Source of the DNA: Escherichia coli | GTDB taxonomy: Bacteria; Pseudomonadota; Gammaproteobacteria; Enterobacterales; Enterobacteriaceae | DNA length: 1,058 nucleotides | Reading direction: 5' to 3' (one strand) | NCBI RefSeq assembly: GCF_003334335.1 | Contig: NZ_QOWQ01000126.1 | Shown: piece after piece, positions 44 to 196 of the stretch | Layout: every line of letters starts with the position of its first letter | Position numbering within the stretch: the stretch's first letter is position 1 | Position numbers and translations under genes: made by a program | Notes under the pieces: generated by a model | Databases searched by the model: none | What the model saw: only the letters and a program-made list of their open reading frames with translations | Told to the model about the DNA's origin: nothing

Positions 44-196
44 CTAATCGCCTGATGCTTTCTTTTTCAGCAACGGGGAAGCAACAACCACCACACCCGC
101 CACCAGCACACCGTCAGCCAGCACTGACATTATCCGGCTGCTGAAGTCCACCATCACCACCAGAAACAGCAGGAGCGCAACCACAGCCAGACGCAT
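44..196 (-). CDS. Hypothetical small hydrophobic membrane peptide, 50 aa, not in the supplied ORF track.
   Basis: Manual translation from ATG 196..194 to TAG 46..44: MRLAVVALLLFLVVMVDFSSRIMSVLADGVLVAGVVVVASPLLKKKASGD. Two hydrophobic stretches and a basic KKK C-terminal tail. The start is 8 nt after the TerB-family stop, consistent with co-transcription or translational coupling. Only a weak SD-like GACGG precedes the ATG, and the region is low-complexity, so it could be a chance ORF. Confidence 0.3.
   Translation of the reverse strand: MRLAVVALLLFLVVMVDFSSRIMSVLADGVLVAGVVVVASPLLKKKASGD

Follow-up and report, generated by a model that had tools for sequence, protein, structure and literature searches.

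The tciA-tciB cassette of a lambdoid Escherichia coli prophage pairs a TerB homologue with a 54-residue DUF3927 protein that is probably inserted in the membrane

The stretch of DNA studied here, 1,058 nucleotides of contig NZ_QOWQ01000126.1 from Escherichia coli (in the following, the window), carries on its minus strand the genes tciA and tciB of a lambdoid prophage, of which tciA encodes a protein of the TerB family and tciB a small, hydrophobic protein of the DUF3927 family. A preliminary description of the window had drawn attention to an unlisted hydrophobic open reading frame (ORF) of 50 codons. Such an ORF does exist on the minus strand, running from an ATG at position 196 to a TAG at positions 46-44 and encoding 50 amino acids (aa), but its start had been misplaced at an internal ATG, as the frame stays open upstream to a GTG at position 208 and the gene encodes 54 aa. 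Nor is the gene unlisted, since RefSeq lists WP_001672426.1 ("DUF3927 family protein") at window positions 44-208. The GTG overlaps the TGA stop codon of tciA in the sequence GTGA, and the tight linkage to a TerB-like gene that had been described is therefore a 4-nt overlap of tciB with tciA. The coordinates of all features are collected in Table 1.

The true start of tciB is the GTG at position 208 and not the ATG at position 196. This start is favoured by the RefSeq coordinates, by the leucine found at residue 5 in homologues and by the conservation of the stop-start junction with tciA. Among the 120 closest database proteins, residue 5 is mostly leucine and the N-terminus MTVK is conserved. 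In all 26 unique tciB coding sequences (CDS), which derive from 80 IMG/VR viral loci and the window, tciB starts at the tciA stop in the form GTGA, TAATG or TGATG, and at all homologous junctions GGAG or GGAA (as CTGGAG or CTGGAA) is found 8-10 nt upstream of the tciB start. Upon sequence inspection, no Shine-Dalgarno-like sequence was seen upstream of the ATG at position 196. The length of the ORF by itself is no evidence of a gene, because 18 ORFs of at least 20 aa occur in the window, including spurious ones of similar size (43-59 aa) in other frames inside tciA.

The gene product belongs to the DUF3927/phage P1 TciB family, which is already known as a family and is present in RefSeq, Pfam and PHROGs; the name tci was reportedly coined in the P1 genome paper. 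TciB matches Pfam PF13064 (DUF3927) with an E-value of 1.7e-18 (residues 5-51 against model positions 4-50 of 53) and PHROG 1470 ("TciB-like") with an E-value of 3.1e-24, covering residues 1-51 of 54. The family signature consists of a length of about 45-65 aa, a core D-F-x-S-x-x-[ML]-S-x-x-x-D-G and a [WF]-P motif before a basic tail. TciB has the corresponding length (54 aa) and carries D21, F22, S24, M27, S28, D32, G33 and P45, with a serine at position 44, where 31 of 52 family members have a tryptophan. Phage JLK-2012, in which a tciA/tciB pair is annotated, shows 95% nucleotide identity to the window, and tciA-tciB of P1 and P7 also align with the window at the DNA level. TciB and its P1 counterpart, both of 54 aa, are 44% identical and have the core VDFTS..LSVLSDG in common. 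No NCBIfam model matched TciB. A tblastn search of the phage collection with the 54-aa sequence gave no match, probably due to low-complexity masking of the hydrophobic sequence, and a comparison of the TciB profile with PDB sequences revealed no solved relative, the best hit (BioY, E 0.22) being a chance match.

The DUF3927 family is small, with 119 matches in a profile search of 1.84 billion representatives, and its named members come from Escherichia, Shigella, Pantoea and Photobacterium, a range that is taken from source names only. Of 5426 complete E. coli genomes, 2486 contain a match to tciB, and a single genome may hold as many as 8 copies; in 1097 of the genomes the match extends over at least 80% of the length of tciB. 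Many of the other E. coli matches are shortened DUF3927 remnants beside a tRNA gene and iraM. In many E. coli prophages, shortened or chimeric copies of 38-43 aa that lack tciA have a phage tRNA gene on one side and iraM on the other (as in L095 1524-1640, L096 1486-1617 and L083 3067-3183), and the labels "DUF3927 family protein" or "TciB" persist in their annotation. The remnants near iraM are probably decayed tciA-tciB cassettes.

A comparison of 27 sequences, that is the 26 unique CDS together with tciB of P1, demonstrated that tciB is a real coding gene under purifying selection. In-frame stop codons occur in none of the 27, and each of the remaining five frames is interrupted in 5 to 27 of them; every CDS has a length divisible by three. 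The ratio of the proportions of nonsynonymous and synonymous differences (pN/pS) amounted to 0.55 overall, to 0.27 in the core (codons 13-37) and to 0.77 in the flanks. With a pS of 0.42-0.51, synonymous sites show no suppression of diversity, and nothing therefore indicates an RNA element overlapping tciB; no Rfam family overlapped the ORF at E ≤ 0.1. Length variation was seen as in-frame tandem expansions of a 9-nt unit (encoding VMV) at TciB residues 17-20 (window positions ~149-160) in the homologues P0013, P0014 and P0017, which add 3 or 6 residues to the first hydrophobic segment, and the variant with one extra VMV unit is present on 443 contigs. The alternative that we are dealing with a chance ORF, or with a non-coding element conserved through the opposite strand or an RNA structure, could appeal to the chance ORFs of similar size that are common in the window and to one antisense frame with a pN/pS of 0.56, a value that is expected for a frame sharing wobble positions. 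However, this antisense frame contains stops in 5 of the 27 sequences, tciB shows in-frame indels only, synonymous variation is unsuppressed, and homology at the protein level extends down to about 30% identity with the motif conserved. These results effectively refute the alternative, and we give it practically no probability. Frame conservation and the ratio of nonsynonymous to synonymous change, which the preliminary description had suggested examining, thus spoke for the gene, and neither a broken frame nor conservation owed to the opposite strand or to a non-coding element was found.

The partner protein TciA matches Pfam TerB (PF05099; E 2.2e-12), PHROG 632 (E 6.5e-69) and the NCBIfam model DjlA (E 1e-6), and its profile matches the structure of Klebsiella TerB (2JXU_A) with an E-value of 2.3e-18, aligning residues 11-136 to residues 17-144. 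Judged by these matches, TciA is a true full-length TerB homologue. Its first eight residues (window positions 613-636, minus strand) read MLGIFKKK, the consensus being MFGxFKKK, and this hydrophobic-basic motif is conserved among TciA proteins down to 28% overall identity and was modelled by AlphaFold2 (AF2) with low confidence; it may be an amphipathic tag for membrane binding.

Full-length tciA lies directly upstream of tciB in 70 of the 80 IMG/VR loci, even where TciA identity is as low as 41%. The other 10 (L064-L068, L070-L075) have lost the 5' half of tciA, which brings tRNA sequence up against the middle of tciA, and tciB is intact. A TerB gene also abuts or overlaps the DUF3927 start in 7 of 8 distant family representatives, whose contexts comprise a position after a cro-like gene (L086), the interval from a P1-Dmt-like methylase to dnaB (L092), a position beside a ParE-like gene and the late region. 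This recurrence of the TerB linkage in differing contexts indicates that tciA-tciB is a mobile two-gene module. The exception is a divergent DUF3927 member, P0208 (L088 4001-4189), which is encoded by itself, with Q on one side and a Phage_holin_3_1 gene 25 nt downstream on the other; in this protein a histidine replaces D21 and the tail is long and rich in arginine and lysine, and no TerB-like ORF was found in the 437 bp upstream of it. Two further candidates for a connection between the partners were rejected. Long matches that looked like natural TerB-TciB fusions (P0131, P0167, P0171 and P0180) are frameshift or assembly chimeras with out-of-frame tciA tails, and a derivation of the "LADG" of TciB from a degenerate, membrane-embedded TerB half-repeat (compare "A[DE]ADG" in TciA) obtained an hhalign probability of 0.2%.

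A lambdoid prophage of E. coli JE86-ST05 (locus L001) contains a stretch with 100% identity to the window, and all genes around it are on the minus strand according to the RefSeq annotation. In the direction of transcription, the antiterminator gene Q is followed by a DNA methyltransferase gene, three tRNA genes, tciA and tciB; after a 495-bp gap come a gene for a SASA-family esterase (nanS-p type) and the DUF1378 and DUF826 genes, followed by class II holin, lysozyme and Rz-type genes. The holin gene (L001 4627-4842) and the lysozyme gene (L001 3134-3667) are at least 3.2 kb beyond tciB, with three other genes between. The order DNA methyltransferase, tRNA gene(s), tciA, tciB is common to this prophage and to P1 (L082), where it reads dmt, tRNA-Asn, tRNA-Thr, an ORF, tciA, tciB, tciC, tRNA, ban; in L092 the order is dmt-like, tciA, tciB, dnaB. 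No equivalent of tciC, that is no small ORF with a transmembrane segment, was found in the 495-bp gap downstream of tciB.

Table 1. Features of the 1,058-nt window, with positions, strand and the evidence on which each assignment is based
Feature	Position	Strand	Evidence or remark
tciB CDS (DUF3927 family)	44..208	-	RefSeq WP_001672426.1, ORF list, Pfam, PHROG, conserved junction, purifying selection
tciB product	54 aa, GTG 208-206 to TAG 46-44	-	MTVKMRLAVVALLLFLVVMVDFSSRIMSVLADGVLVAGVVVVASPLLKKKASGD
Shine-Dalgarno-like GGAG, inside last codons of tciA, 8 nt upstream of tciB GTG	217..220	-	Sequence inspection
Internal ATG (Met5 of TciB)	194..196	-	Position not conserved, no Shine-Dalgarno-like sequence upstream
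tciA CDS, TerB family, 143 aa, TGA stop 207-205 overlapping tciB start	205..636	-	RefSeq, Pfam, PHROG, structure profile
AAGGAA ribosome-binding site, 7 nt upstream of tciA ATG	644..649	-	Sequence inspection
tciA-tciB cassette (moron)	8..757	-	Homology breakpoints, blastn against Stx2a phage Stx2_95
Intrinsic-terminator-like hairpin, 7-bp stem and T6 (GGCTCGC-TTTT-GCGGGCC)	775..792	-	Terminator scan
tRNA-Arg-TCT	807..883	-	ARAGORN, RefSeq, Rfam
tRNA-Arg-TCG	897..973	-	ARAGORN, RefSeq, Rfam
CAT-anticodon tRNA	983..1058	-	ARAGORN, RefSeq, Rfam

The CAT-anticodon tRNA at positions 983-1058 (minus strand) is called Met by ARAGORN and Ile by RefSeq; we take it to be of the ileZ type, with the C of the anticodon presumably modified to lysidine. 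The gap that separates tciB from the esterase gene contains a strong match to the STnc100 small RNA (sRNA) family (Rfam RF02076, 143 bits, E 8e-33) at L001 7773-7978 (minus strand), about 23 nt past the left edge of the window and 66 nt downstream of the tciB stop, and this sRNA carries its own terminator (L001 7803-7784). TerB genes have been described within 10 kb of most PasA/PasC loci (2026 preprint on the prophage Pas sRNAs).

In the Stx2a phage Stx2_95 (L094 1943-3270), 1.33 kb with stx2A-stx2B occupy the place of window positions 8-757. The flanks that the window and Stx2_95 have in common stop at window position 758 and restart at position 7, with identities of 94.7% and 78.6% for the two flanks in blastn alignments. 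Therefore, tciA-tciB and stx2AB are alternative cargoes of one slot. The terminator hairpin listed in Table 1 follows directly after the tRNA-Arg gene, ahead of the cassette and inside the flank common with Stx phages. In a simple consensus scan, no sigma-70-like promoter was found between this hairpin and tciA, and the closest promoter-like site on the minus strand precedes the tRNA genes. As a terminator-like hairpin precedes the cassette, tciAB, like stx, would need antitermination or read-through, and since there is in addition no promoter directly upstream, this simple scan of promoters and terminators suggests that tciAB is probably expressed mainly from the Q-antiterminated late transcript, as is the case for stx. 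On the plus strand, the scan gave two promoter-like sites only, of which one (TTTAAA-18-GATAAT; window positions 388-417, L001 8388-8417) lies antisense inside tciA and points away from tciB, and the other, at L001 7543-7571, is followed by a plus-strand terminator at L001 7744-7765. No plus-strand promoter-like site that would yield an RNA over window positions 44-208 was found in the same simple scan, which is not a strong negative.

The TciB protein has a grand average of hydropathy (GRAVY) of 1.38, with hydropathy peaks at residues 7-21 and 26-47. The preliminary description had put the hydrophobic residues at about 70%; the protein is indeed strongly hydrophobic, but L, V, A, I, M and F account for 66% of the 50-aa form and for 65% of the 54-aa form. 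The lysine-rich C-terminal tail that had been pointed out is present as KKKASGD. Among 52 diverse family members, the tails are basic, with a mean of 1.8 K+R in the N-terminal tail and of 2.5 in the C-terminal tail, and the 13-residue middle segment is net acidic (D+E 2.0 versus K+R 0.7). At least 90% of these members have D21, S28 and D32, and F22, S24, G33, W/F44 and P45 are frequent across them; the spacing of D21, S28 and D32 (i, i+7, i+11) would place them on one helical face. AF2, run with a 52-sequence alignment, returned one continuous helix of residues 3-51 with a mean predicted local distance difference test (pLDDT) of 92.8; this model supports helicity of TciB without separating a hairpin from one long helix. 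Basic ends of membrane proteins stay in the cytoplasm by the positive-inside rule, and the combination of basic tails and an acidic middle accordingly favours a hairpin with both ends cytoplasmic. To judge from its composition and family profile, TciB is probably a small, very hydrophobic, membrane-inserted peptide, and this part of the earlier reading, a membrane peptide linked to a TerB gene, is retained.

A different topology would result if the first segment were cleaved off as a signal peptide, leaving a mature product of about 26-34 aa that would be C-terminally anchored or periplasmic. The P7 homologue Upf69.4 carries a sig_peptide feature, and the N-terminus of TciB does offer an n-region (K4, R6) and an h-region (residues 7-20). 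However, signal peptidase I requires small residues at positions -3 and -1, and both candidate sites break this rule, as 48 of 52 members have V or I at -1 to D21 and the residue at -3 before S24 is mostly F. Moreover, a lipobox cysteine is absent, and the second segment with its KKK tail resembles a second membrane span. We consider such processing highly improbable.

How might such a peptide function? We lean, at slightly better than even confidence and largely by analogy, towards TciB being the membrane-embedded partner of TciA in a non-essential accessory membrane module, and not a free-standing toxin or a lysis holin. Ribosomes that finish tciA would re-initiate on tciB, and by this translational coupling both products would be made together. 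TciB would enter the inner membrane as a short helical hairpin, with its basic ends MTVKMR and KKK in the cytoplasm and the polar stripe D21-F-x-S24 ... S28 ... D32-G in or near the periplasmic leaflet. It would there partner the soluble, membrane-peripheral TciA, in the role that integral-membrane TerC has for TerB in ter operons, and the TciA-TciB module might alter the inner membrane, or guard it, in an infected or induced cell, comparable to the phage inhibition and colicin resistance to which ter operons have been linked. According to one report, TerB interacts with the integral membrane protein TerC (PMC11003894), and TerB proteins have been described as amphitropic and as present in membrane-linked anti-phage systems (bioRxiv 10.1101/2025.09.30.679545). 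The fusion of a TerB-like domain to a transmembrane anchor in DjlA serves as a further analogy for such a partnership. With regard to the accessory nature of the cassette, tciA, tciB and tciC of P1 were non-essential when studied by CRISPR interference (CRISPRi), and no toxicity was reported (PMC10695390); this non-essentiality and the common shortened remnants in E. coli support an accessory role. In addition, the operon has been lost in about half of one P1-like plasmid subgroup (PMC9603915).

Several observations weigh against a partnership of TciB with TciA in the membrane. We found no experiment on any DUF3927 protein in the literature searched, and the name Tci derives from TerB homology only. 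When TciA and TciB were joined as TciA-(GGGGS)6-TciB and modelled by AF2 with 17 paired sequences, the predicted template modelling score (pTM) was 0.55, TciB dropped to a pLDDT of 56-76 and formed a single helix, and no confident docking was obtained. The putative cytoplasmic tails of TciB have only 6-7 residues, and the C-terminal one is variable, whereas the conserved residues would be intramembrane or close to the periplasm, which is not the simplest site for the binding of a cytosolic TerB protein. Also, the AF2 model draws one continuous helix instead of a hairpin, and the two hydrophobic segments have only about 14 residues each. The lone P0208 without a TerB gene in L088 suggests that TciB may act without TciA, and the proposed timing of expression is derived from nothing but a simple scan for promoters and terminators.

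The preliminary description had compared the ORF to type I toxins and to holins, and neither comparison could be upheld. In the case of type I toxins, no antisense promoter or RNA and no transcription unit of its own were found, translation of tciB is probably coupled to a protein gene and no toxin family was matched. In the case of holins, tciB lies outside the lysis cassette, with the class II holin gene about 3.2 kb downstream, and its only matches are DUF3927 and PHROG 1470. A toxin-like effector of another kind is conceivable, in which TciB would depolarise the membrane or form pores and TciA would act as its sensor or restrainer, the two forming an abortive-infection, exclusion or toxin-antitoxin (TA)-like unit. 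The size, hydrophobicity and basic tail of TciB resemble those of small membrane toxins, the polar stripe of D21, S28 and D32 could line a helix face as in oligomeric pores, and the arrangement of a protective gene first and an effector second with a 4-nt overlap is like that of type II TA operons. Furthermore, the validated defence system Dionysus pairs a TerB-like protein with a transmembrane pore-forming effector, and ter operons are linked to phage inhibition. However, PADLOC gave 0 matches for TciB and for TciA only PDC-S48 (E 0.0031 over 35 residues), which is insignificant, and here too the lack of any match to a toxin family counts. The intact tciB beside a 5'-truncated tciA in 10 of 80 loci speaks weakly against a toxin that is tolerated only with TciA, and the lone DUF3927 gene in L088 speaks against it as well; a knock-down of P1 tciB had no phage phenotype, and no published toxicity data were found in the literature searched. 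We therefore regard a toxin-like effector as unlikely.

A role as accessory to lysis timing, with TciB as a holin-like, antiholin-like or holin-modulating late peptide, would fit the location of tciB between Q and the lysis genes, with which it shares its orientation, as well as the position of the L088 member 25 nt upstream of a Phage_holin_3_1 gene. Small transmembrane segments and a charged C-terminal tail are found in holins too, a trait that is not specific to them. In contrast, a class II holin, a lysozyme and Rz-type proteins are already encoded by the prophage itself, in genes separated from tciB by those for the SASA esterase, DUF1378 and DUF826, and in other phages the cassette belongs to early regions or to those of replication, where it follows cro (L086) or lies between dmt and dnaB (P1 and L092). 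TciB matches no holin family, and its conserved partner is TerB and not an endolysin. Such a role in lysis seems very unlikely to us.

The partnership of TciB with TciA could also be given a more specific, and quite speculative, form, which we think improbable as it stands. TerB and DUF3927 would constitute a self-contained two-protein membrane device, carried by phages as cargo in place of Shiga toxin, in which a TciB oligomer formed via the D21/S28/D32 stripe would provide a small site in the inner membrane that binds or conducts cations and is gated or sensed by TerB, a protein with acidic ADG..E motifs. If so, the device would exclude superinfecting phages, protect against pore-forming colicins or control the membrane potential late in the lytic cycle, and it would represent the first mechanistic role for a TerB domain with a minimal partner. 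As it is, the main outcome is the correction of an annotation detail, namely the GTG start and the length of 54 aa, and the removal of the false lead of an unlisted toxin. The cassette is a common one, located in the late-operon slot used by stx, and a full-length TerB protein with a 54-residue membrane peptide could be the simplest system in which the role of TerB domains at membranes might be studied.

When compared to known systems, TciB resembles type I toxins in having about 50 aa, in being very hydrophobic and in its predicted insertion into the inner membrane; it differs from them in that it matches none of the Hok, Ldr, Ibs, Sho or TisB families and in that translation of tciB is probably coupled to the gene of a 143-aa protein. 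The prophage does carry an annotated type I toxin gene, hokD, at another place (L001 13274-13429). The association of a TerB-type protein with membrane components is also found in Shango (SngA), Bunzi (BnzA) and Dionysus (DinB with the pore-forming DinC), and TerB has been proposed to serve in membrane surveillance (bioRxiv 10.1101/2025.09.30.679545). However, those systems consist of three genes, including large enzymes or a toxin with four transmembrane segments, and are encoded by the host, whereas tciAB is found in a phage late operon, and the PADLOC models of known TerB-containing defence systems gave no significant match to TciA or TciB. With the TerB-TerC pair of the terZABCDEF operon, the cassette shares the order of a TerB gene followed by the gene of an inner-membrane protein, but TerC is a large multi-pass protein without detectable sequence relation to the 54-aa TciB, and terZ, terA, terD, terE and terF are absent from the cassette.

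The closest counterpart is TciB of P1, which belongs to the same family and likewise has 54 aa, a basic N-terminal tail, a hydrophobic segment, a VDF[TS]S..[ML]SVL.DG core, a [WF]P motif and a basic tail. In both cases the tciB start overlaps the tciA stop (TAATG in P1), and tRNA and DNA methyltransferase genes are nearby. The P1 operon differs in having tciC, a third coupled ORF of 35 aa with a single transmembrane segment that is lacking in the lambdoid cassette, and in its position between dmt and ban, whereas the cassette of the lambdoid prophage is in the stx slot of the late region. With stx and the other morons between Q and S, the cassette has in common the slot between tRNA genes of the ileZ-argN-argO type and the nanS-p (SASA esterase) gene together with its flanks, while the stx cargo itself is unrelated to tciAB.

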